Source: Oscillospiraceae bacterium
Lineage (GTDB): Bacteria > Bacillota > Clostridia > Saccharofermentanales > Saccharofermentanaceae
Direction: 5' to 3'
DNA: 64,000 nucleotides
Assembly: GCA_015069205.1 (NCBI GenBank)
Contig: SVIZ01000010.1
Location: forward strand, 15,938 to 79,937
The notes beneath the pieces are model-generated. The model ran no database searches, was not told the DNA's origin, and saw only the letters and a list, made by a program, of their open reading frames with translations. This document shows positions 32,225 to 44,570 of this stretch, piece after piece. Each line of letters starts with the position of its first letter. Within the stretch, counting starts at the first letter, position 1. A program made the translations under genes and the position numbers.

Positions 32225-34858
32225 ATGACAAAGTACGTTTACCTGTTCACCGAAGGCAACGGAAACATGCGCGAACTCCTCGGAGGTAAGGGCGCTAACC
32301 TTGCTGAGATGACAAACATCGGTCTTCCTGTTCCTCAGGGATTCACGATCACCACAGAGGCTTGCACAAAGTACTACGAAGACGGTCGTCAGATCAATGA
32401 CGAGATCATGGGCCAGGTTATGGAGTACATCGTAAAGCTCGAAGAGATCACAGGCAAGAAGTTTGGTGATCTAGAGAACCCGCTCCTCGTTTCCGTAAGA
32501 TCCGGTGCAAGAGCATCAATGCCTGGTATGATGGACACAATCCTCAACCTCGGTCTTAACGAGCAGGTTGTTGACGTTATCGCTACAAAGTCCGGTAACC
32601 CCAGATGGGCTTGGGACTGCTACAGAAGATTCATCCAGATGTATTCCGACGTTGTTATGGAAGTCGGTAAGAAGTATTTCGAAGAGCTCATCGACAAGAT
32701 GAAGGCTGAAAGAGGAGTTAAGCAGGACGTTGAGCTTACAGCTGACGACCTCAAGGAACTCGCTTCACAGTTCAAGGCTGAGTACAAGGCAAAGATCGGT
32801 TCTGATTTCCCTACAGATCCTAAGGAGCAGCTCGTTGGCGCTATCAAGGCCGTATTCAGATCATGGGACAACCCGAGAGCTAACGTTTACAGAAGAGACA
32901 ACGATATCCCTTATTCATGGGGTACAGCAGTTAACGTTCAGTCCATGGCATTCGGTAACATGGGTGACGATTGCGGTACAGGCGTTGCTTTCACAAGAGA
33001 CCCTGCTACAGGTGAGAAGGGACTTTTCGGTGAGTTCCTCACAAACGCACAGGGCGAGGACGTTGTTGCAGGTGTTCGTACTCCTATGAAGATCGCTGAG
33101 ATGGAGCAGAAGTTCCCTGAAGCATTCGCTCAGTTCACAAAGGTTTGCGAGACTCTCGAAAAGCATTACAGAGACATGCAGGACATGGAGTTCACAGTTG
33201 AGCACGGTAAGCTCTACATGCTCCAGACAAGAAACGGTAAGAGAACAGCTCAGGCTGCTATGAAGATCGCTTGCGACCTCGTTGACGAAGGTATGAGAAC
33301 ACCTGAGGAAGCAGTTGCAATGATTGATCCCCGTAACCTCGATACACTCCTTCACCCTCAGTTCGATCCCGCTGCTCTTAAGGCTGCAGAGGCAATCGGC
33401 AAGGGACTCGGTGCTTCTCCGGGAGCTGCTTGCGGTAAGATCGTATTCACAGCTGACGATGCAGTAGCTTGGCACGACAGAGGAGAGAAGGTAGTCCTCG
33501 TAAGACTTGAGACATCTCCTGAAGACATCACAGGTATGAAGGCTGCAGAAGGTATCCTCACAGTACGTGGCGGTATGACATCACACGCTGCAGTTGTTGC
33601 ACGTGGTATGGGTGAGTGCTGCGTTTCCGGTTGCGGCGACATCGCTATGGACGAAGCTAACAAGCAGTTCACACTCGCTGGCAAGACATTCAAGGAAGGT
33701 GACATCATCTCCCTCGACGGTTCTACAGGTAAGATCTACGATGGCGCTATCGCTCAGGTTGACGCTGATCCTAACAATGGTTACTTCGGCCGCATCATGA
33801 AGTGGGCTGACGAGTTCAAGAGACTCGAAGTACGTACAAACGCTGATACACCTAACGATGCTAAGAAGGCTCGTGAGCTCGGAGCTGAAGGTATAGGTCT
33901 CTGCCGTACAGAGCACATGTTCTTCGGTGAAGGCAGAATCGACGCATTCCGTGAGATGATCTGCTCCGATACAGTTGAAGAGCGTGAAGCTGCTCTCGCA
34001 GTTATCCTTCCCATGCAGCAGTCCGACTTCGAAGCTCTCTATGAGGCACTCGAGGGTCATCCCGTTACGATCAGATTCCTTGACCCGCCGCTTCACGAAT
34101 TCGTTCCTACAGAAGAGGCTGACATCAAGGCACTCGCTGATAAGAAGGGTAAGTCTGTAGAAGAGATCAAGACATTGATTTCTTCACTCCACGAGTTCAA
34201 CCCTATGATGGGTCACAGAGGATGCCGTCTCGCAGTTACATATCCTGAGATCGCAAAGATGCAGACAAGAGCAGTTATCCGCGCTGCTATCAACGTTAAC
34301 GCAAAGCATCCCGACTGGAAGGTAACACCTGAGATCATGATCCCGCTCGTATGCGAGATCAAGGAGCTCGTAAACGTTAAGAAGGTAGTCGTAGAGGTTG
34401 CTGACGAAGAGATCAAGGCTGCAGGCGTAGACATGTCCTACAAGGTAGGTACAATGATCGAGATCCCCAGAGCTGCTCTTACAGCTGACGAGATCGCTAA
34501 GGAAGCTGAATTCTTCTGCTTTGGTACAAACGACCTTACACAGATGACATTCGGTTTCTCCAGAGACGACGCAGGCAAGTTCCTCACAGCTTACTATGAG
34601 GCAAAGATCTTCGAGTCCGATCCGTTCGCACGTCTCGACCAGAACGGCGTAGGCAAGCTCATGAAGATGGCTATCGAGTCCGGTAAGGCAGTACGTCCTG
34701 ACCTCCACCTCGGTATCTGCGGCGAGCACGGCGGCGACCCGACATCTGTTGAGTTCTGCGATGAGATCGGTTTGGATTATGTATCCTGCTCACCTTTCCG
34801 TGTACCGATCGCTAGACTTGCTGCTGCACAGGCTGCAATCCGCCATTCGAGGAAATAA
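32225..34858 (+). CDS. ppdK: Pyruvate, phosphate dikinase (last five codons supplied by the integrated element)
   Basis: LLGGKGANL, SVRSGA, GGMTSHAA (phospho-His), GLCRTEHMF, GICGEHGG. Confidence 0.98.
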   Translation: MTKYVYLFTEGNGNMRELLGGKGANLAEMTNIGLPVPQGFTITTEACTKYYEDGRQINDEIMGQVMEYIVKLEEITGKKFGDLENPLLVSVRSGARASMPGMMDTILNLGLNEQVVDVIATKSGNPRWAWDCYRRFIQMYSDVVMEVGKKYFEELIDKMKAERGVKQDVELTADDLKELASQFKAEYKAKIGSDFPTDPKEQLVGAIKAVFRSWDNPRANVYRRDNDIPYSWGTAVNVQSMAFGNMGDDCGTGVAFTRDPATGEKGLFGEFLTNAQGEDVVAGVRTPMKIAEMEQKFPEAFAQFTKVCETLEKHYRDMQDMEFTVEHGKLYMLQTRNGKRTAQAAMKIACDLVDEGMRTPEEAVAMIDPRNLDTLLHPQFDPAALKAAEAIGKGLGASPGAACGKIVFTADDAVAWHDRGEKVVLVRLETSPEDITGMKAAEGILTVRGGMTSHAAVVARGMGECCVSGCGDIAMDEANKQFTLAGKTFKEGDIISLDGSTGKIYDGAIAQVDADPNNGYFGRIMKWADEFKRLEVRTNADTPNDAKKARELGAEGIGLCRTEHMFFGEGRIDAFREMICSDTVEEREAALAVILPMQQSDFEALYEALEGHPVTIRFLDPPLHEFVPTEEADIKALADKKGKSVEEIKTLISSLHEFNPMMGHRGCRLAVTYPEIAKMQTRAVIRAAINVNAKHPDWKVTPEIMIPLVCEIKELVNVKKVVVEVADEEIKAAGVDMSYKVGTMIEIPRAALTADEIAKEAEFFCFGTNDLTQMTFGFSRDDAGKFLTAYYEAKIFESDPFARLDQNGVGKLMKMAIESGKAVRPDLHLGICGEHGGDPTSVEFCDEIGLDYVSCSPFRVPIARLAAAQAAIRHSRK
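34826..34840 (+). repeat. attL core GCACAGGCTGCAATC in the ppdK 3' end
   Basis: Identical 15-mer at 42143-42157; the part from CA onward recurs at 43736. Confidence 0.9.
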
Positions 34859-34988
34859 GCCACGTAAGTCATATTACTTTATGACCTTGTATGTAACTAA
34901 AGAGGACGTTATGCGGTATTTCGCGAACGTTCCGGAGTACACAAAAGTCAATGCGTACAAGGACATGAGAATTGATATTTACATTTAA
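34842..34988 (+). other. Stranded 3' fragment (48 codons) of the element's serine recombinase, int(C)
   Basis: In the recombinase frame the att core reads HRLQS and continues AIRGNKPRKSYYFMTLYVTKEDVMRYFANVPEYTKVNAYKDMRIDIYI*, ending right at the terminator. Confidence 0.75.
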
Positions 34989-35023
34989 AATATGCCCGGA
35001 GCTTAAGTGCTTCGGGCATATTT
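34988..35023 (+). terminator. Terminator copy 1 (serves ppdK when integrated, the recombinase when circular)
   Basis: AAATATGCCCGGAGC-ttaagt-GCTTCGGGCATATTT plus GTTTTTT. Confidence 0.9.
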
Positions 35024-35159
35024 GTTTTTTAATTTATCATTGGGTGTTAATGATATAATTTTTTATTGAAGTGAAAAATTTAAAAGTATTTCTCGAACCA
35101 CCCAAGAAATCATATCCGTTATTCGTCTATTAGATAGATGCGGATAGAAAGGAGACAAA

Positions 35160-36629
35160 ATGATGACCGACAAGGAACTCGAGCAGATCTATAACGAAGC
35201 CTATAAAGCAGTGTACTGGACAGCCTTAGGATTACTTAAGAATGAGGCTGATGCAGAGGACATTGTACAGGACACTTTCGTTACTTTGATCGAATCTTAC
35301 GATTCAATCAAAGATAAGAGCAAGGTTATATCCTGGCTTAAAAAGACTGCTGCCAATAAGTGTCTGGATCGCATAAAACTTGCGAAAACAGACAATATGG
35401 ACGAAGAGTTCTTTGACAGCGTTGAAGCTGTTCCGGAGGATTTCCTGCCTGATTCTATTATTGAGTCGGAAGATGCTCGCAGGATCGTTATGGATATCAT
35501 CAACAACAAATTATCTGATGATATTAGAAGAACACTTATCCTGTTCTACTTTGACGATATGAGCACAAAAGAGATCGCGGAAGCGCTCGGAATTCCACAG
35601 GGTACAGTCTCGTGGCGTCTGAATTTTGCCAAGAAAACAATCAAGAAGGAGGTCGAGAAGTATGAAGAAGAAAACAAGACGAAGTTGTTTAGCATGGCAG
35701 CACCATTCTTAAGCAAGCTATTTATAAAAGAAGCAGAGCAGGTACCATTCAAGGCCATACCTGCAAAACTGATATCTTTGTCCGCATCTGCAGAGGCTTC
35801 AAAAGCCGGATCAAACATTGCTATAAAGGCAGTAAAGAAAGGGACAGATATTATGAAAACAAAAATCTTGATTGGCAGCGTTGCTGCTGTGGTTGCAGTT
35901 GGTGCAACAGTTGGAATAATCCTCGGAGTAATGAACAAAAAGCCGGAGGAAAAGCCTGTTATCTCAGATACAACATCGATCTCTGAGGTGAATGAAGTTA
36001 CTGAGGTAAATAATGAAAGTGTTACGGAAGCGACTTCTGGCGGTAGTTCTGAGACATCGCCAGCGGGAGCCAGGTGGATTGATAGTAACCGCTGTATCGT
36101 TAACGGTCACGAGATAGTGATTGGTCAGAGCACCGTGCAGGAACTGGTTGACAGTTGTTATATTGTTGTTCATGATGCAAAGGCTGATCCCGGAGAACCT
36201 CAGCTTCAAAGCCAGGATTATACTTTGGATACTGTGGTCTCACAGGCTGACAGGAATGTTTTGAGGTATTTAGGAATTTGGGCTTTCCCGGATGAAGCAT
36301 CGGCTGCTTCGAAAGAAAATGCGGTTCTCTTCAGCTTCCGTCTTCCTGAGGATGGTGAAAAGCCCATAAGAGACTGCATTATCGGTTCGTTTTATGTCGA
36401 TCTCAGGACGGAAGTTATTGAGATCTGGGGAGACAATCTGCAGTTAGATTTTCCGTTTACAATGACTCTAAATGATCTTGTGGAAAACTCAGGAGAAGGA
36501 ACTCCTACTGGAATGCCAAACGCTTACGCTTATTATACAGATCCTTTGGCGGGCACATGGTGGACATTCGATTTCGATGATAACGATGAGAAGTTAGAGA
36601 CTGTTTCTTTTTCAACTCCTTTTTTCTGA
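35160..36629 (+). CDS. ECF sigma-70 factor fused to a TM helix and an extracytoplasmic domain
   Basis: Region 2 DAEDIVQDTF..SWLKKTAANKCLD; region 4 MSTKEIAEALGIPQGTVSWRL; TM ILIGSVAAVVAVGATVGIILGVM. Confidence 0.88.
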   Translation: MMTDKELEQIYNEAYKAVYWTALGLLKNEADAEDIVQDTFVTLIESYDSIKDKSKVISWLKKTAANKCLDRIKLAKTDNMDEEFFDSVEAVPEDFLPDSIIESEDARRIVMDIINNKLSDDIRRTLILFYFDDMSTKEIAEALGIPQGTVSWRLNFAKKTIKKEVEKYEEENKTKLFSMAAPFLSKLFIKEAEQVPFKAIPAKLISLSASAEASKAGSNIAIKAVKKGTDIMKTKILIGSVAAVVAVGATVGIILGVMNKKPEEKPVISDTTSISEVNEVTEVNNESVTEATSGGSSETSPAGARWIDSNRCIVNGHEIVIGQSTVQELVDSCYIVVHDAKADPGEPQLQSQDYTLDTVVSQADRNVLRYLGIWAFPDEASAASKENAVLFSFRLPEDGEKPIRDCIIGSFYVDLRTEVIEIWGDNLQLDFPFTMTLNDLVENSGEGTPTGMPNAYAYYTDPLAGTWWTFDFDDNDEKLETVSFSTPFF

Positions 36630-36657
36630 ACTTAATCAAGTCAAAATAACGCAAAAA

Positions 36658-36682
36658 CATCCCGAGAATATATCTCGGGATG
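36658..36682 (+). terminator. Hairpin after the ECF fusion gene
   Basis: CATCCCGAGA-atata-TCTCGGGATG; lacks a strong U-tract. Confidence 0.55.
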
Positions 36683-36709
36683 CCAATAATTAATAAGAGG
36701 TAGAAATTT

Positions 36710-37474
36710 ATGAAAAGAATCACGACACTTATTTTAGCTGGATCTATGGTGCTTGCCTTCTGCGCGTGCGCGCCTAAGGATCAATCAGGAACGGAAGATA
36801 AGAATTCTGCTGAACAAACAATAGAAAGCATTACTGAAGCGATTTCAGGAGAAGGCGCGAAGAACAGTTCCGAAGCAGATTCCGAATTTGGATCTGCAGG
36901 CAGAAAATATGTCAACTTCAATGACCTGAAGGTGAAAATCAACGGAAAAGTAATCACTATGAATCAGTCCACTGTACAAGATCTTGTTGATATAGGCTGC
37001 TATGTAAATCCTCACCTGTTGGATAGAAGTGTTGCTTACGGCAATAAAGTCGGCGACAGCGTAGAAGCAGGACAGCTGGTGTATATGACTGTTTTTGATA
37101 TGGATGATGAAGAAAATAGGCCTTCCGGACAGAATGCAAATCGTCCAATAGTTTTCATTGCAAAAGCAGAGACAGCAGGCACTATTTCTGAGTGTGTAAT
37201 ATGTGGTGTCCATTTTAGAACCGAGGATATAATTGCATGGGAAGATGAAATAGAGTTTGAGTTCCCTCTCGACCTCACGTCTGAAGAATTAGTAAAAGAC
37301 TCAGGAGAAGCTTCTTCAGTTGAAACTGGTACAACCGAATCATGGTACCGGTATGAATCTGAGGATAGTTCAATGGTATTCCATTTTAGGAATGGGTCCT
37401 TAATTAGTATTATGGCTGAGTTTGATGAAGGCTCGATCATTGACCTGCAAAAGGGTTTGATCAGCGCCACGTAA
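36710..37474 (+). CDS. Lipoprotein sharing a domain with the ECF fusion C-terminus
   Basis: Signal peptide ending LAFCA-C; INGKVITMNQSTVQDLVD versus VNGHEIVIGQSTVQELVD in 35160-36629. Confidence 0.8.
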   Translation: MKRITTLILAGSMVLAFCACAPKDQSGTEDKNSAEQTIESITEAISGEGAKNSSEADSEFGSAGRKYVNFNDLKVKINGKVITMNQSTVQDLVDIGCYVNPHLLDRSVAYGNKVGDSVEAGQLVYMTVFDMDDEENRPSGQNANRPIVFIAKAETAGTISECVICGVHFRTEDIIAWEDEIEFEFPLDLTSEELVKDSGEASSVETGTTESWYRYESEDSSMVFHFRNGSLISIMAEFDEGSIIDLQKGLISAT

Positions 37475-37539
37475 CGAAATTCGTACAGACGAGTTATGGA
37501 CACTCATCCGGCTCACATCAACACAATAAAGGTGCAAGT

Positions 37540-37571
37540 AATAAGCGGGATCTTAATTGACCCCGCTTATT
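37540..37571. terminator. Terminator hairpin after the cargo genes
   Basis: AATAAGCGGG...CCCGCTTATT. Confidence 0.75.
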
Positions 37572-38289
37572 CTATAAATGATACTTAAACTATAATTGCA
37601 ATTCGTTCCGAATTCATTATGAATTGGTGAACCATGGCAGGGTTCAAAAGTGAACCGTGCATTACATTGAACTTATAACACTTGAATATATTAAGTTGAA
37701 AAGGTAGTAGTTATCTATAGTAGAGTACTATAACTAAATATAAGTACATGCTGTTTTCAGAAGCAGAAATATGATTCTCATATATAGTATGAATACTTAT
37801 CAGTGATTGTCTCACTTCCGGTTATGAAATTAGTTGTAGGTTATGCGATAACCTTTTTGTTTTTCAACCCAACATAATAATGTTTTCCCAGAATATTGAC
37901 ATTGGCTGTTGCATATTGATGTGCCAGAAACAATCTAAACAAATTAATGGGACATATTTAACCAAAAACAAACATAAGTTCTTGACAAAGGCGTCTTAGC
38001 GTGATATATCTGTGTTCACGTACATCGCTTAACTGTATCTTGTATTCAGAAGATGACAGTAATAAAGTGACCATTTTGCGGACGGATATATAATGTTCAG
38101 GCATTTTGATGCCAGGATCCATGACAAGCAAAAGGCACCAACAAGTTTGATACTTCATTCTTCCTTTGAGGACAACTATGTCTGGAAGATAAGTTTCGAC
38201 GTGTTGGTGTTTTTTTATTTTCTGTCTTTTCAATTCAAGGTGACACAATTTTACGCTACGAACTAAAAGAAAAGTCGTTCATTCTTTTG

Positions 38290-38355
38290 GTTTAAGGCAA
38301 GCATCGCGTCCGTGTACACAAGGACGCAACTTATCGGGCAGAAGCCCGAACCCAC
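38290..38355. other. Probable oriT
   Basis: Minus strand reads GATGCTTGCC (38296-38305), resembling the pC221-type MOBP nick region; adjacent inverted repeats GCGTCC/GGACGC and TCGGGC/GCCCGA directly upstream of mobC. Confidence 0.65.
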
Positions 38356-38380
38356 TTTTATTTACAGGAGGTGATTCACA

Positions 38381-38707
38381 ATGACAAAAGAGAAAAACAA
38401 GACCAAAAATCTGCATATTCGTTTGTCAGAAAATGACTTTGAACTTATTAGGAAAAAGGCTTTGTCATCCTATTTGACTGTTACTGATTATGTGACTAAG
38501 TGTTGTCTTGAGAAACAGATATTCGTCATTGAAGGTATCGATGAAGTGATACGGCAGCAGAAATATGTTGGCAACAACCTCAATCAGCTCACAAGAATTG
38601 CAAACAGCGGGGCGGTAAATGTAGTCGGTCTCGATGAAGTTAAAAACGAATATGCAAAGGTTACAGGGAAATTGAATGAGATCCTTGAACGTGGAAGGTG
38701 GCGCTGA
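38381..38707 (+). CDS. mobC: Relaxosome accessory protein MobC
   Basis: RHH-like NLHIRLSENDFELI and GNNLNQL motif; stop overlaps the relaxase start (TGATG). Confidence 0.92.
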   Translation: MTKEKNKTKNLHIRLSENDFELIRKKALSSYLTVTDYVTKCCLEKQIFVIEGIDEVIRQQKYVGNNLNQLTRIANSGAVNVVGLDEVKNEYAKVTGKLNEILERGRWR

Positions 38708-40071
38708 TGGCAGTGATAAGTATTCTTTCCAACGGAAGTACACAAGGTCATAAACCGCTCAAGAACGTCCTCGACTACTGCATGCAGGAAGCAAAAACAA
38801 TGAATGACGGACATAAACTCGTGTCAGGGATCGACTGTTTGCCTGAAACGGCATATTCGGACATGATGGCGACAAAGAAGAGATTTGGCAAAACAGGCGG
38901 TCGCGAATACTATCACATCCTTCAGTCGTTTTCTCCAGATGAGCTTCTTACGCCGGAAGAGGCCCATAGGATTGCCTGTGAGTATGCTCAGGAACAATTT
39001 AAGGGTTATGAACTGATCGTTGCTACACACGTCGACAGAGACCATATACACTCGCACATTGTGCTTAACAGTGTCAGCCACATTGATGGAAAGAAATACC
39101 ATTCGGACAAAAATAACATCCCAAGACTACGTGAAGCATCAGATGCACTCTGTATGAAGCATGGTCTTACAGTGATTGGAAAGACAGAAAACGGTCTCCG
39201 GAAGATGGGAACAAGAGAATACAGAGCGGCATCAAAGGGTGAAAGCTGGAAGATCAACCTCATGGCTACGATCAATCTAGCGATGACAAAAGCCAAAACA
39301 AGGAATGATTTCATCAGATTTATGGAGTCGCGCGGATATAAAGTGACGTGGTCTGATACCAGGAAATACATAACTTACACTATCCCGGACGGCAAAAAAT
39401 GCAGAGATAACAAACTACATCTCAAGAAATATACAAAGGAGATGATGGATTATGAATTCGAAATACGACGAAGAATTAACGAGCTTCATCGGCAACGCAG
39501 AGAAGAATCTTATACAGGCAGCAGAACCGACGAAGTGCGTGATGATCTCGGAAGAGAACTGGAAGAGCATCGTCAAGACGTTGGAAGCGCAGTTAAAAGC
39601 GATGGACAGGCTTGGAATGTTACTGAACAGAACACTCACAGCAGAGCAGACGTGCAGTTTTATAAATCAAATGACGGATATTCATATCAAACACGAACAG
39701 TATTGGATGGAAGAACTGACAGGCGAAGCAAAGACTCTGAAGACGGAATTGGAAGAACAATCGAAGAAAATGATGACAGATCTGACCTCACAGGCTGGGA
39801 AAATGAGCGAGCAGTCTGCTACGGATCTGGCCAAGATCAAGATGGAAATGCAAGTTTATTCGGACAGACTGTATCACCGTCTGCTTCTTCCATGCCTTCT
39901 TACGACATTGCTCTCAGCGGTGCTTACCTTATGGCTGGTGCTTCAACTTTGACCGAATCACCGCAAGATAAAGACCGTGACGAGAATGAAATTGCACGTG
40001 AAAAGGCATCCCACGATGACAAAAAGAAGAAACAACGGCATGACGGACATGGTCCGGTAATGACAATGTAA
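38707..40071 (+). CDS. MOBP-type relaxase (MobA/VirD2 family)
   Basis: LDYC (catalytic Tyr), YHILQSFSP, ATHVDRDHIHSHIVLNSV. Confidence 0.92.
   Translation: MAVISILSNGSTQGHKPLKNVLDYCMQEAKTMNDGHKLVSGIDCLPETAYSDMMATKKRFGKTGGREYYHILQSFSPDELLTPEEAHRIACEYAQEQFKGYELIVATHVDRDHIHSHIVLNSVSHIDGKKYHSDKNNIPRLREASDALCMKHGLTVIGKTENGLRKMGTREYRAASKGESWKINLMATINLAMTKAKTRNDFIRFMESRGYKVTWSDTRKYITYTIPDGKKCRDNKLHLKKYTKEMMDYEFEIRRRINELHRQRREESYTGSRTDEVRDDLGRELEEHRQDVGSAVKSDGQAWNVTEQNTHSRADVQFYKSNDGYSYQTRTVLDGRTDRRSKDSEDGIGRTIEENDDRSDLTGWENERAVCYGSGQDQDGNASLFGQTVSPSASSMPSYDIALSGAYLMAGASTLTESPQDKDRDENEIAREKASHDDKKKKQRHDGHGPVMTM
39452..39952 (+). CDS. Overprinted ORF inside the relaxase gene, MobB-like coiled coil with C-terminal TM helix
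   Basis: 166-aa alternative-frame ORF, RBS AAGGAG at 39436-39441, hydrophobic C-terminus LLLPCLLTTLLSAVLTLWLVLQL. Confidence 0.6.
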   Translation: MNSKYDEELTSFIGNAEKNLIQAAEPTKCVMISEENWKSIVKTLEAQLKAMDRLGMLLNRTLTAEQTCSFINQMTDIHIKHEQYWMEELTGEAKTLKTELEEQSKKMMTDLTSQAGKMSEQSATDLAKIKMEMQVYSDRLYHRLLLPCLLTTLLSAVLTLWLVLQL

Positions 40072-40090
40072 ATCATAGGAGGAATTTTAT

Positions 40091-40597
40091 ATGGATAGAA
40101 TTAAGGCAATTAATATTAAAAATATTCTTGTTGAAGAAACTGGCGGGGGTATATATGTTTCTGACCGCGTCTTCGAACGAGAAAAAATGGAAGATTTAGA
40201 CTATATTTCAGAGCTCATTTCAGAGATGATGCGGTTAAAAAATATAAACAACCAAACTACAGATGCATTGCTCATCAATGAGATAAGAATAGTTTTTCCG
40301 GACAGGTTTGTAGAGGCAGCAAACATTATCATGGCTGTTTCATTATTCAAATCGTTCAAAGAACAGGGGTTGCTTACAGAAGATGAATACCTTGAGATTG
40401 TGTCCGACAATGAAAAACGCTGGCGAAATCTCTTATACGGTGATAGTATGACTACTAATAAAGTAGTTTTAAACGGGGGTATATATGAGAAGAAAAGTCG
40501 CAATTTATGCCCGTGTTTCGACCGAACACGAAGAACAGATATCGGCTTTGGAGAATCAGGTTCAGTATTATTCAGAACTTTTGGAGCGTCATCCTGA
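40091..40597 (+). CDS. Hypothetical protein with SHOCT-like segment, overlapping the recombinase start
   Basis: RBS AGGAGG; FKSFKEQGLLTEDEYLEI resembles small proteins found before large serine recombinases. Confidence 0.6.
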   Translation: MDRIKAINIKNILVEETGGGIYVSDRVFEREKMEDLDYISELISEMMRLKNINNQTTDALLINEIRIVFPDRFVEAANIIMAVSLFKSFKEQGLLTEDEYLEIVSDNEKRWRNLLYGDSMTTNKVVLNGGIYEKKSRNLCPCFDRTRRTDIGFGESGSVLFRTFGASS

Positions 40598-42179
40598 GTT
40601 TGAACTCTATGATCGATACATCGATGAGGGCATTACAGGAACATCTGTAAACAAGAGACCAAGCTTCCTCAGAATGATGGAAGACGCAAAGAAGGGGTGT
40701 TTCGATTTGATTATTACGCGCGAGGTCTCGCGATTTGCTCGTAATACTGTCGATACTCTTCTTGAAACACGTAAGCTTAAAGCTATGGGTGTAGAGGTAT
40801 GGTTTACAGAAGATAACATATGGACGTTTGACGATACCGATGGAGAGATAAAGCTTACACTTATGGCAACACTTGCACAGAATGAAAGCAAGAAAATCTC
40901 CACACGTGTTAAAGCCGGTCAGATGATCTCTTTTAAGAATGGCGTTCCGTATGGAAATGGTAATATTCTTGGATACGATAAGCTTCCCAATCATGGCGGA
41001 TATGTGATTAATAAAGAACAAGCAGAGACGGTTAGATTGATTTATGATCTGTATCTTTCTGGAAAAGGCTTGCGCGCAATACAGTTTGAGCTCGAACAAA
41101 GAGGCAGAAAGACGGCGAAAGGATTAAGTCATTGGGATTGTTCTAACATCGGAAGAATATTGAAGAATCCGTTTTATTGCGGAATTCTTGAGTATCGCAA
41201 GCAATATGTACCGGATTATCTTGAACAAAAGAAGATAAATAATCATGGTGCAGTAGAACGAATACGGGTTAAAGGAACCCATGAACCTATAGTTTCCGAA
41301 GTCGAATTTGCCATGGTGCAGGCAAGAATAGAGAATAATGTTCAACCCGCGAACAACAAATCCAAAATCACAGGACGAAAGGAACATGCTGATGTCTGGG
41401 GAGAAAAACTTGTTTGTTATTGTGGAAGAAAGCTGAATCGTGTTAAGTATCATACGACGAAAGACGGAGATATAAAGTATGCATATCAATGTGCATCTCA
41501 AAAAGACACAGGTTCTATAAAAACAAGAATGAATAAAGGTCTGCCTTTGGATGGTGTATGCCGATCTCAGTTTGTTCAGGCATGGAAACTGGAGGCTCAA
41601 GCATCAGTAATATTTGCTCAATTCTTTAACAATAAACAAGCGATTCTGCGTGTGGCAAATGCTATGTTTGAGTCAAACGGGATAGTTGAAGGAAAGAAAA
41701 ACAGCGAAGAAAAAGAACTCAAAAGACTCAATCAGCAAATTGATAAAGCACAAAGTAAGATTGATAAGCTGCTTGATCTTCGATTGTCAGAAGAGATTGA
41801 TCGCGACGACTATGCCAGAAAAAGAGAAGAATTGGATAAACTCATTGCTCAAGCACAAGAGAAGATAGCACAAATATCTAAGTATCAGGCAATGGAAGAC
41901 AGTATCGAAGCTCGTGTAAATGCGATGAAAGAAGTCATTGAAGGTCAAAAAGAATATGACTTTACACGAATACCGGAAGATATAATTAGAGCATTTGTTG
42001 ATAAAATAGTCGTGTACGAGGATTACTTGGAGTGGCACCTGATCTTTGATGAAACAACACAAATGAGACTGTCCTGCACAGGACAAAAAAGGAACCATGA
42101 AGTAGTGTTCTTACTGGATAATCCCCTAAATAGCGGGCCTCAGCACAGGCTGCAATCAAGCACAAGGCTAAATAAATAA
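40485..42179 (+). CDS. Large serine recombinase (integrase), C-terminus altered by attR
   Basis: VAIYARVSTE (catalytic Ser), VSRFARNTVD, LAQNESKKISTRV, LKNPFYCG, zinc ribbon (CYC..C..C), coiled coil. Confidence 0.95.
   Translation: MRRKVAIYARVSTEHEEQISALENQVQYYSELLERHPEFELYDRYIDEGITGTSVNKRPSFLRMMEDAKKGCFDLIITREVSRFARNTVDTLLETRKLKAMGVEVWFTEDNIWTFDDTDGEIKLTLMATLAQNESKKISTRVKAGQMISFKNGVPYGNGNILGYDKLPNHGGYVINKEQAETVRLIYDLYLSGKGLRAIQFELEQRGRKTAKGLSHWDCSNIGRILKNPFYCGILEYRKQYVPDYLEQKKINNHGAVERIRVKGTHEPIVSEVEFAMVQARIENNVQPANNKSKITGRKEHADVWGEKLVCYCGRKLNRVKYHTTKDGDIKYAYQCASQKDTGSIKTRMNKGLPLDGVCRSQFVQAWKLEAQASVIFAQFFNNKQAILRVANAMFESNGIVEGKKNSEEKELKRLNQQIDKAQSKIDKLLDLRLSEEIDRDDYARKREELDKLIAQAQEKIAQISKYQAMEDSIEARVNAMKEVIEGQKEYDFTRIPEDIIRAFVDKIVVYEDYLEWHLIFDETTQMRLSCTGQKRNHEVVFLLDNPLNSGPQHRLQSSTRLNK
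42143..42175 (+). repeat. attR core plus displaced ppdK 3' end (AQAAIKHKAK*)
   Basis: GCA CAG GCT GCA ATC AAG CAC AAG GCT AAA TAA continues the ppdK frame. Confidence 0.88.
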
Positions 42180-42197
42180 TTAACATTAACTTATAAG

Positions 42198-42232
42198 ATA
42201 TGCCCGGAGCGATATGCTTCGGGCATATTTTT
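42198..42232 (+). terminator. Terminator copy 2
   Basis: ATATGCCCGGAGC-gatat-GCTTCGGGCATAT plus TTTT. Confidence 0.9.
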
Positions 42233-42350
42233 ACTTTTGACAAAACACGCCAAAAGCAATTTGTGTTTTTGACAAAAACGCTTATTGTTGCATTGTGTTT
42301 TTGACAGCGACATGATATTCTTCAGATATAATACTGACAGGAGAGCATTT

Positions 42351-43682
42351 ATGGAGCTGAAAAGAAAGTGCGAAAAAGATATTAGATCCTGGTACAGAAA
42401 CAGCACAAAGGCTTTGCTTGTCAAAGGCGCACGACAGGTTGGCAAGACGCATCTGATCAGACGTGTTCTCAAAGAAGAGGGTTGTGATGTTTTCGAAGTG
42501 AATCTTATCGAGACTCCGGAGGCTGTCAGCATTCTTCAGCAAGCCGGGACCGTAGATGAACTGATGATTGGTCTGTCTGCCTTAGGTGGTCAGAGACTCC
42601 AAAAGGGAAAGACTGTAATCTTTATTGACGAGATTCAGAAATATAAGGAAATGGTTACCAAAATCAAATTCCTTGTTGATGACGGAAGTTTCAGATATGT
42701 TCTAAGTGGATCGCTGCTAGGAGTTGAACTGACGAATATCGAATCTGCACCCGTCGGATATCTGTCGACGATTGAGATGTTTCCGCTTGATTTTGAGGAG
42801 TTCCTGCAGATTACTGACATCAGTGACGAGGTGATAGATAGCCTTAGAAGATCGTTTGAGACGCGAAGCGCGGTGTTGGATGCAGTGAATGATAAGATGT
42901 TGAATCTGTTCAGACGTTATCTTGTTGTCGGTGGAATGCCGGAAGCAGTGAGTGTTTTCGCAGATACAAAGAACGTGAAAGACGTTATTACAACACATCA
43001 AGATATAAAGGCTTTATATAAACTGGATTTTACTCAATATGAATCAGATGATAAAAAGCTGATGATTTCAAGTGCGTATGGCCTGATACCGTCGGAACTT
43101 CTGAAACAGAACAGACGATTCATTGTTACGGATCTAAAAAACGGACTTCACTTCGATCGTGTTGAGAGCACCTTCCTATGGCTCTATAATGCCGGAGTTG
43201 CGATACCTGCATTTAACAGCACTGAACCGAGAATACCGCTAAAACTGAATGAAAAACGAAGTCTGTTTAAACTATATCTGTCTGACGTTGGTATGCTTAC
43301 TTCTGAATATGGAATGAGTGCGAAACGCATGCTGATAAGTAATGACAGCAGCCTTAATGCCGGCGGCATATATGAGAATGCGGTTACCCAACAACTGAAA
43401 GCATCCGGTTTTGAAATCTATTACTACAATTCCAACCGACTTGGCGAACTTGACTTTGTGATCGATTATAGCGGCAGTTCCACACCTATCGAAGTGAAGA
43501 GTGGCAAAGACTATGATAAGCACTCTGCCTTGAACAATTGTCTTCAGAATACTGAATATGAGATGAAGGAAGGTTTTGTATTAGCTGATTGTAATATACA
43601 TGCAAAAGGAAAAGTAACATATCTTCCCATTTATATGATTATGTTCATCAAGAATGATTCAGAAGATTACTATTTGAATTGA
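42351..43682 (+). CDS. AAA+ ATPase (AAA_14 plus DUF4143)
   Basis: Walker A GARQVGKT, Walker B FIDEIQ, SGSLLG, GGMPE, KLYLSDVG, ELDFV..IEVKSG; start set to ATG 42351. Confidence 0.9.
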   Translation: MELKRKCEKDIRSWYRNSTKALLVKGARQVGKTHLIRRVLKEEGCDVFEVNLIETPEAVSILQQAGTVDELMIGLSALGGQRLQKGKTVIFIDEIQKYKEMVTKIKFLVDDGSFRYVLSGSLLGVELTNIESAPVGYLSTIEMFPLDFEEFLQITDISDEVIDSLRRSFETRSAVLDAVNDKMLNLFRRYLVVGGMPEAVSVFADTKNVKDVITTHQDIKALYKLDFTQYESDDKKLMISSAYGLIPSELLKQNRRFIVTDLKNGLHFDRVESTFLWLYNAGVAIPAFNSTEPRIPLKLNEKRSLFKLYLSDVGMLTSEYGMSAKRMLISNDSSLNAGGIYENAVTQQLKASGFEIYYYNSNRLGELDFVIDYSGSSTPIEVKSGKDYDKHSALNNCLQNTEYEMKEGFVLADCNIHAKGKVTYLPIYMIMFIKNDSEDYYLN

Positions 43683-43735
43683 AGCATAGACATGACGGAA
43701 AATTTTTTAGGCTAGCCTCGATGTTTACGCCACAT

Positions 43736-43762
43736 CAGGCTGCAATCAAGCACAAGGGCTGA
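43736..43762 (+). repeat. Third copy of the ppdK 3' end / att-like site (QAAIKHKG*)
   Basis: CAGGCTGCAATCAAGCACAAGG (22 bp) identical to 42146-42167; identity begins exactly at the CA dinucleotide. Confidence 0.85.
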
Positions 43763-44072: not shown

Positions 44073-44429
44073 ATGAAGACTTGCAATATGAATATTGAGA
44101 AGAAGGCCATTAAGGAATTAAGCCCTGATGATCTGAATGAAGTTGCCGGAGGTCTTTCCGGTGAAGTAGTACTTGACAGTATATATCTTAATAAGCTGGG
44201 TTTACTCTATGATACTGTCTCAGACATTTATACTCTTTTTCACTGGGGAGAAGCCACTTCATTTGTCGAAGACGGATGGGCAAAGGTCGGAATTACTTGC
44301 GTAACCAGCTATATGAACTGTAACTGTTATTACTATCAAGGTGAAATGATCAGCAGGAACAATGCTTTGAAAATCGCGAGAAATACCTGTATTAAAGGAC
44401 CGCAGATTGGGCCCATGGTTAACAATTGA
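44073..44429 (+). CDS. Double-glycine leader peptide precursor (bacteriocin-like)
   Basis: RBS AGGAGG; leader ends ELSPDDLNEVAGG; about 91-aa predicted mature part. Confidence 0.7.
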   Translation: MKTCNMNIEKKAIKELSPDDLNEVAGGLSGEVVLDSIYLNKLGLLYDTVSDIYTLFHWGEATSFVEDGWAKVGITCVTSYMNCNCYYYQGEMISRNNALKIARNTCIKGPQIGPMVNN

Positions 44430-44463
44430 GTAAGGCTTAATTATACAAGTATTAAGTTATAAG

Positions 44464-44498
44464 ATATGCCCGGAGCGATTTGCTTCGGGCATATTTGT
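44464..44498 (+). terminator. Terminator copy 3
   Basis: ATATGCCCGGAGC-gattt-GCTTCGGGCATAT plus TTGTTTTT; the downstream ~55 bp resemble those after copy 1. Confidence 0.9.
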
Positions 44499-44570
44499 TT
44501 TTCAATTTGTCATTGGGTGTGAATGCTATAATTTATTAAAGTGAATATCGAATCAGGAAAGCAAATCGGA

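Follow-up and report, generated by a model that had tools for sequence, protein, structure and literature searches.

A large serine recombinase gene probably split by its own attachment site in a mobilizable element at ppdK

An element at the 3' end of ppdK

The DNA analysed here, a stretch of 64,000 nucleotides from contig SVIZ01000010.1 of an Oscillospiraceae bacterium (assembly GCA_015069205.1; hereafter the window, to whose coordinates all positions refer), carries ppdK, the gene of pyruvate phosphate dikinase, and behind it an element of 7,317 bp with a GC content of 40.5%, against 46.5% in the flank. The element lies between two copies of a 15-mer, GCACAGGCTGCAATC, which occurs exactly twice in the window and had no match in the 100 shuffles used for comparison (Table 1). 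One copy is inside the last codons of the 877-residue ppdK open reading frame (ORF), which ends AAQAAIRHSRK, and the other inside the last codons of a 564-residue recombinase ORF, int. The last five ppdK codons and the stop (RHSRK, 34841-34858) come from the element. Its genes include an integrase, a relaxase and a relaxosome accessory protein, and among the ORFs of the 7.3 kb there are no conjugation-pore genes and none of the size expected for a type IV secretion system. This suggests that 34841-42157 is in all probability an integrative mobilizable element, placed into the last ppdK codons by its own large serine recombinase (LSR).

Table 1. Features of the element and of its junctions with ppdK, in window coordinates.
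Feature	Position	Strand	Basis or remark
ppdK (pyruvate phosphate dikinase), 877 aa	32225..34858	+	host-encoded to 34840
attL core, 15-bp identity block	34826..34840	+	repeat; likely crossover CA 34829-34830
Detached 3' int fragment (probable), 48 codons and stop (AIRGNKPRKSYYFMTLYVTKEDVMRYFANVPEYTKVNAYKDMRIDIYI)	34842..34988	+	in frame with core HRLQS
Element-borne intrinsic terminator T1	34988..35023	+	15-pair hairpin and T-run
Cargo, 489 aa, N-terminal sigma-70 r2/r4 (ECF-like), long C-terminal extension	35160..36629	+	Pfam
Cargo, putative lipoprotein, 254 aa, no Pfam family	36710..37474	+	ORF list, Pfam
NikA/MobC-type relaxosome accessory protein	38381..38707	+	Pfam PF21983, PF05713
MobA/VirD2-type relaxase, 457 aa	38698..40071	+	Pfam PF03432, E=1e-39
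Small ORF, 168 aa, candidate directionality factor or regulator	40091..40597	+	position; weak SHOCT_2 match
Large serine recombinase, integrated state, 564 aa	40485..42179	+	element-encoded to 42157; STRLNK and stop from host
attR core	42143..42157	+	repeat; CA at 42146-42147
Displaced native ppdK end KHKAK and stop (42158-42175), native terminator (~42197-42235)	42158..42235	+	joined flanks

The recombination site and the two parts of int

In the recombinase frame both copies of the 15-mer read HRLQS. The right copy is followed by STRLNK and a stop; the left copy by 48 more codons, AIRGNK...DMRIDIYI, with the stop at 34986-34988. Joined in silico, the two ends of the element give a 606-residue ORF and an attP-like site, with a predicted junction of ...CAGCACAGGCTGCAATCCGCCATTCG... 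(also given as ...GGGCCTCAGCACAGGCTGCAATCCGCCATTCGAGG...), and the joined flanks give a ppdK ending AAQAAIKHKAK. The integrated copy encodes Int(1-558) and six further residues, which are a ppdK remnant read out of frame. Two arrangements alone can encode the 606-residue enzyme: the joined ends of a circle after excision, and the junction with a second, tandem element. We consider it very probable that integration splits the gene, with 34842-34988 as the final coding segment.

This arrangement had been described in a first-pass annotation, made from the letters and an ORF list, whose coordinates and sequences are all correct: re-reading the ORFs returned the 15-mer in the last codons of both genes and the same three readings around it, the 48 codons do stop at a terminator (a 15-pair hairpin and T-run from 34988), and the in silico join does restore the 606-residue recombinase. 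The annotation had also proposed a dyad centred on CA. The symmetry is present, at 14 of 24 positions of the reconstructed attP (binomial p ~1e-3), around a centre that was picked post hoc; by sequence, attB scores 8/24 and the sites of relatives 6-14/24. On the grounds of this symmetry, CA is the likely crossover position within the 15-bp block.

One short stretch of DNA therefore has two readings. When integrated, 34826-34858 encodes A-Q-A-A-I-R-H-S-R-K and the stop of PpdK; on the circle it would be read as H-R-L-Q-S-A-I-R-G-N-K of Int. That PpdK receives RHSRK in place of KHKAK, and that the stretch is dual-coding, had likewise been claimed before, and both the joined flanks and the empty sites of congeners described below agree with it. 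Integration exchanges the PpdK end and its terminator together for element-borne ones; in return, the displaced KHKAK codons supply the six foreign residues of Int, and the native ppdK terminator closes the int transcript. The detached int fragment then lies within the 3' untranslated region of ppdK. T1, which resembles the host terminators at 42185-42230 and 44451-44496, would end ppdK transcripts in the integrated state and int transcripts on the circle.

The 48 codons continue the recombinase in its relatives

At the composition of the element, a 48-codon open frame arises by chance with a probability of about 4%. The frame alone is thus weak evidence, and the weight rests on homology and selection. 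Relatives of the recombinase were taken from 58 genome loci translated in six frames, where the tail module was sought by tblastn, and from a HMMER search without a profile, using the protein of locus L001 as query against 1.84 billion representatives; the full-length forms came from these two sources. Word-indexed protein searches with the 606-residue and L001 queries, covering the C-terminal region only, returned split forms exclusively.

The tail is contiguous with int in L001 (71% identical, 604 residues), L005, L024, L035, L009, L016 and L017, and also in L040, L041, L032-L037 and L046-L048. Full-length homologues carrying the module show 36-71% identity. The module opens with a hydrophobic strand (YFLMTITVT) and continues through a short helix (KEDxxRYF) and a loop to a last strand, which ends D[IV]YI or KLFLV. 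Three HMMER matches of 36-43% identity (P0017, P0021 and P0058) align through the last residue (604) and have the same ending. The check proposed in the first-pass annotation, that full-length homologues align through ...RIDIYI, thus came out as predicted, both in these proteins and in the contiguous loci.

Other relatives are split in the same way. At least six other split elements, among them L002 (Int 69% identical), L077, L078, G005 and G015, keep the tail at attL beside ppdK, directly behind the ppdK-borne core; the int ORF follows 6-10 kb downstream and stops just past its own core. Split single copies are the commonest state found, accounting for at least 20 of about 45 loci, and the split protein P0001 represents 131 sequences. 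Over the searched region, the database protein P0010 is 99% identical to the L001 enzyme and has the same sequence as far as ...TGCN, then ends QRIE at 560 residues: the same integrase is on record in both states.

Practically every relative down to about 50% identity has the core, GCACAGGC[T/A]GC[A/T]AT (ppdK codons A-Q-A-A-I), in the 3' region of its int gene, and at least 20 related loci have it within the int ORF. The window, L077 and P0001-P0007 read it as HRLQS; L001, L002, L003 and L007-L031 read it shifted by one base, as TGCN or TGSY. Both groups regain the frame of the tail. The linker therefore appears free at the amino-acid level while continuity with the tail is kept. The residues of split genes past the core (STRLNK, STESNSLIN, NR, YR...) follow the host ppdK end out of frame and are not conserved.

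Selection was scored in each frame over the 39 codons that align without gaps between the window, L077, L002 and L001. In the Int frame, the proportion of synonymous differences (pS) is 0.52-0.91 (also given as 0.82-0.91) and that of non-synonymous differences (pN) 0.13-0.25; in the two other frames, pN equals or exceeds pS in all comparisons except one. From these sequence comparisons, the tail is under purifying selection in the Int frame only.

Architecture of the enzyme

By sequence and predicted fold, the enzyme is an LSR on all counts. The Resolvase domain (PF00239, E=2e-27) covers residues 5-153 and its YARVST motif is invariant in 30 relatives; the Recombinase domain follows (PF07508, E=6e-24); the zinc-ribbon cysteines 310, 312, 335 and 358 are invariant in relatives, and long paired helices at 398-468 of the model form the coiled coil. 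The top Foldseek matches are the SPbeta, phiC31, LI and Bxb1 integrases (E=1e-19 to 1e-14).

An AlphaFold2 model of the L001 protein, computed with 30 relatives as input, shows the usual LSR architecture at a mean predicted local distance difference test score (pLDDT) of 73. Residues 497-518 form a helix and hairpin with a sub-threshold match to DUF4368. They are followed by a stretch with pLDDT below 50 (523-563), which holds the core codons, and then by a strand-helix-strand unit (568-604) at pLDDT 72-84; in a separate model of the C-terminal 104 residues of L033, whose linker is short, this unit reaches 86-90. In these models, attP would coincide with the coding DNA of a flexible tether that links a small folded C-terminal module to the body of the enzyme.

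Tandem arrays and relatives with another layout

In tandem arrays, the upstream int runs on, in frame, into the tail of the neighbouring element and so regains its full length. Locus L041 has two cores 7.2 kb apart (3122 and 10288) with a tail behind each; L015 (7285 and 13897) and L016/L039 have two int genes per contig. Some downstream int genes of such arrays are frameshifted. In L047/L048, ppdK lies 4 kb upstream of a contiguous int, and a second core was not found there.

In two relatives at a greater distance, the core lies outside the gene. In L035 (49% identical), a ppdK-like core lies about 170 nt after the int stop and reads AQAALNNK before a stop codon; in the virome scaffold MT836627 (L079, 39% identical), it lies about 60 nt after the int stop (2201, reverse strand) and reads AAQAAIKSPRS before a stop codon. 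In both, int includes the tail. In the alignment, the linker of the core-in-gene clade is longer than that of short-linker relatives by an insertion of about 40 residues. Together with the canonical layout of L035 and MT836627, this insertion suggests that the targeting of ppdK is older than the split layout, which would be the derived state.

In a sister clade (L033, L034, L036, L037, L038 and L042), two LSR genes lie in tandem, separated by about 300 bp. The tail module of the first is attached by a short linker; a ppdK core is absent from this clade.

Empty and occupied sites

The relatives of the host are metagenome-assembled genomes of rumen and gut Clostridia. With the joined flanks as query against 40 related genomes, an empty site was found in at least eight congeners: here ppdK runs directly into its native end, KHKA, KHKG, KHRK, AHKK, AHKA or NKKG, each followed by a stop codon. 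In G021, the empty ppdK is followed by the same terminator as in the window. The displaced ppdK end and terminator of the window are contiguous with ppdK in this genome, and they are found at the attR of L077.

The site is occupied in two other species of the genus, G005 and G015, of which G015 has a variant element. Between G005 and the window, 3.8 kb from the mob genes to int are 97% identical at the nucleotide level, against 93% over the ppdK 3' end, which argues for transfer after the species split. L077, a metagenome contig of the same or a very close host (one mismatch in the attR flank), has a different element at the same position, with an Int 63% identical to that of the window and a cargo of an EcoRI-like methylase, GmrSD and a Rep-like gene; another ppdK 3' end, in L078, holds yet a different element. 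From these comparisons, we infer that the element family has moved between species and genera.

Several further observations concern the surroundings of the site. In the congener G006 (locus L063, 1886 and 3243), ppdK ends KHKG followed by two stop codons, and 1.36 kb farther on an int 3'-end fragment is joined to a second ppdK end (AQAAIAHKK and a stop); by its sequence, the site resembles a heavily deleted element remnant. In the window itself there is a third partial att copy: the 22-mer CAGGCTGCAATCAAGCACAAGG, made of the core and the native right flank, occurs at 42146-42167 and again, 1,590 bp away, at 43736-43757, where it reads ...IKHKG and a stop in the ppdK frame. The segment between the copies (42158-43735) has no integrase and contains a native-type terminator and a gene for an AAA_14/DUF4143 ATPase (42285-43682); it resembles a cassette, or a remnant, stacked at this attB. 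A similar additional att copy lies 4.3 kb past the attR of G005.

A single terminator hairpin (ATATGCCCGGAGC...GCTTCGGGCATATTT) is present in three copies, at 34977-35065, 42185-42230 and 44451-44538. The 58 nt behind the copy of the element (35008-35065) are 91% identical to those behind the third (44481-44538), which suggests host-like post-ppdK sequence at the left end of the element, a possible capture by recombination. The terminators behind the tail in L077 and L078 are unrelated. Between the third att copy and the third terminator lies a small bacteriocin-like ORF (44073-44429), with a double-glycine-type leader (…ELSPDDLNEVAGG) and a Cys-rich C-terminal part.

Other genes of the element

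The gene order is shared by L001, L002, L004 and L072. The 40091 ORF overlaps the int start by 113 nt, and a small ORF stands at the same position upstream of int in L001, L002, L004, L072, L074 and L076. Its homologues in relatives are about 126 residues long; in L072, L074 and L075 they have 126 residues and end before int, which points to loss of the stop codon in the window. Its conserved position makes it a candidate recombination directionality factor (RDF). As to the cargo, the extracytoplasmic function (ECF)-type sigma protein of 489 residues has a predicted membrane segment, and 30 nt of its gene (36410-36439) form a 73% repeat with int, probably by chance.

Layout, mechanism and alternatives

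Altogether, we favour the explanation in which attP lies in the linker of int and the gene is split on integration, and give this account as a whole a probability of about 80%. The LSR would insert the element into the last ppdK codons by means of an attP within its own gene, in the DNA of a disordered linker. This linker would separate the enzyme body (catalytic domain, recombinase domain, zinc ribbon with coiled coil and DUF4368-like hairpin) from a β-α-β module of about 40 residues. The full-length protein would matter while the element is circular, integration being the obvious candidate stage; the truncated chromosomal protein would still support excision, probably aided by a small directionality factor (the 40091 product, for instance). 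Excision by the truncated form is suggested by the prevalence of split single copies and by the near-identical elements in different species. In split elements only the circular or tandem form can translate the tail, so its selection there argues that the full-length protein has a fitness effect.

Several results weigh against this account or parts of it. Contiguous genes of the attP type occur in chromosomal contigs, for instance in L009, a 2-Mb contig; tandem arrays rather than free circles would explain most of these, as in L041, L015 and L016/L039. An exact-pattern scan of metagenome contigs with the attP junction CAGCACAGGCTGCAATCCGCMATTCGAG had its sole match in L078, which is an attL, and found no circle; the host ppdK of L078 reads GCAGCAGCACAGG. 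Since L035 and MT836627, which appear to target ppdK, have the core behind the int stop, the split layout is not needed for targeting ppdK. The packing of the tail on the protein body is predicted with low confidence by AlphaFold (predicted template modelling score 0.37-0.42), no Pfam family matched the 48-residue tail or the C-terminal fragments, and a Foldseek search of the C-terminal 104-residue model against the PDB gave nothing better than E=5.

What the module does is a separate matter. That its removal by integration alters the activity or directionality of the enzyme is somewhat less likely than not in our view, yet likelier than either of the two alternatives given below. It is possible that the module acts as an intramolecular determinant of directionality or activity, whereby the topology of the element would set the behaviour of the enzyme without a separate sensor; we put this forward tentatively. 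The circle would then give a full-length, integration-proficient protein and the integrated copy a tail-less one, biased to excision or altered in RDF dependence or stability, and a tandem neighbour could restore the full form. A role in directionality is plausible because, in the SPbeta integrase, an essential RDF helix packs between DBD2 and the coiled-coil hinge, beside F532 near the C-terminus (PMC11722253). The same source, citing Abe et al. 2021, has a statement that F532, which contacts the RDF, is important for directionality.

The module could also be no switch at all, a reading to which we give a similar, minor share of belief: the attP core would have landed in a tolerant linker, the two forms would behave alike, and the tail would be an accessory for solubility, stability or oligomerisation that is cheap to lose. 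The linker is predicted to be disordered and, with two frames in use, is unconstrained at the amino-acid level; distant relatives appear to target ppdK with a core outside the gene; and the last 28 residues of the SPbeta integrase are disordered in all complexes (PMC11722253). However, selection on the tail is equally strong in split elements and in contiguous genes, which implies that the full-length protein affects fitness, and the layout is retained over a clade that has diverged to about 50% identity.

Integration could, on the contrary, be self-locking ('suicidal'), as with the SSV1-type archaeal integrases. If the tail were essential, the chromosomal enzyme would be dead and excision would need full-length Int in trans; a circular copy could supply it, as could a superinfecting element or an upstream tandem element that uses its neighbour's tail. 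The strong conservation of the module fits such a scheme, as do the tandem arrays that recreate full-length genes (L041, L015, L016/L039; compare L001 with P0010) and the decayed remnants at the site (G006/L063; the integrase-less cassette 42158-43757); exactly this option was proposed by McMurdie et al. for dsiB, discussed below. Nevertheless we regard it as unlikely: the split single copy is the commonest state, the family spans many genera with intact truncated ORFs, and the spread of a 97%-identical element between G005 and the window, whose ppdK 3' ends are only 93% identical, needs excision from the integrated state. Moreover, the clostridial LSR TnpX tolerates the loss of about 110 C-terminal residues. 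A small part of our belief is left for explanations other than these.

That the 48 codons do not belong to the integrase is effectively refuted. As a chance frame (the 4% given above) they are rejected by the contiguous homologues and by the selection specific to the frame that continues Int; as a separately translated small gene, for which the window offers an AGAGGA motif 4 nt before an internal ATG (…KEDVM), they are rejected since no start codon or Shine-Dalgarno motif is conserved, both the internal Met and the motif being absent from L002 and L001, and since the tail frame is regained after either reading of the core.

Comparison with known systems

The directionality of serine integrases is currently attributed to coiled-coil interactions and a separate RDF protein. 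If a module lost on integration has the role considered above, recombination that rewrites the C-terminus of the enzyme would add a cis-encoded layer of control. At the same time, one short DNA stretch would serve two genes in turn, as the C-terminus of PpdK when integrated and the linker of the integrase when excised, and a highly expressed metabolic gene receives its end and its terminator from the element.

With the canonical serine integrases SPbeta SprA, phiC31, Bxb1 and A118/LI, the present enzyme shares its domain architecture and fold; by sequence, its putative att sites would likewise be short, with a central dinucleotide. In those systems, unlike here, attP lies outside the int ORF and a single protein form acts in both directions, which are set by the RDF. 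This canonical layout also occurs within the same LSR subfamily, in L035 and MT836627, whose core follows the stop at a distance of 60-170 nt.

The split form also bears on how such enzymes are collected. The database proteins P0001-P0012 all end in host-derived residues and are without the real 40-residue module. As LSR mining takes the chromosomal ORF as it is, synthesised candidates from the present family would be truncated chimeras. A large study of this kind makes no mention of ORFs that cross the att site (PMC10083194). Our literature search found no paper on ppdK as an LSR target or on the present element family, and, on an LSR gene split by its own attP, nothing specific besides McMurdie et al. 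2011.

Among genes divided by integration, the first-pass annotation rightly pointed to the SSV1-type integrases of archaeal viruses and plasmids, in which integration into a tRNA gene partitions the gene at its own attP (PMC8371274). These are archaeal tyrosine recombinases, and the provirus encodes no intact catalytic protein. In the ppdK element, by contrast, the catalytic and DNA-binding body stays intact and the C-terminal module alone is lost. The closest bacterial analogue, Mx8, had been left out. In this Myxococcus phage, attP lies in int, and integration turns intP into intX with a new 3' end, so that the enzyme is altered but not inactivated, as reviewed in PMC6070905 (Tojo et al. 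1996; Magrini et al. 1999). With its state-dependent C-terminus, Mx8 provides the best functional analogy for the ppdK element; its integrase is a tyrosine recombinase of unrelated chemistry and fold, and the resemblance to it, as to the SSV1-type enzymes, is in layout alone.

In enzyme class, the closest precedent is dsiB, and the earlier statement that no description was known for a family of this kind has to be corrected on its account. This gene, from the ssrA-specific genomic islands of Dehalococcoides, encodes a CcrB-like large serine recombinase, and its 3' end overlaps attL in every case (McMurdie et al. 2011, BMC Genomics 12:287, PMC3146451). Its authors speculated that dsiB is fully functional only on the circle or beside an adjacent island that supplies the 3' fragment; they also saw the overlapping part as divergent and judged the gene full length without it (PMC3146451). 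The likeness is considerable: an LSR on integrative mobilizable islands, a gene overlapping attL, and islands stacked in tandem at one site. Those islands use ssrA as their target instead of ppdK, and the two recombinases would seem to be related at the level of the superfamily only. Moreover, the part detached in the ppdK element is a conserved, selected module of 40 residues, present in unsplit homologues, which indicates that a real domain is removed. An LSR gene overlapping its att site was thus already known; what the sequences of the present family appear to add is the demonstrable removal of a conserved domain.

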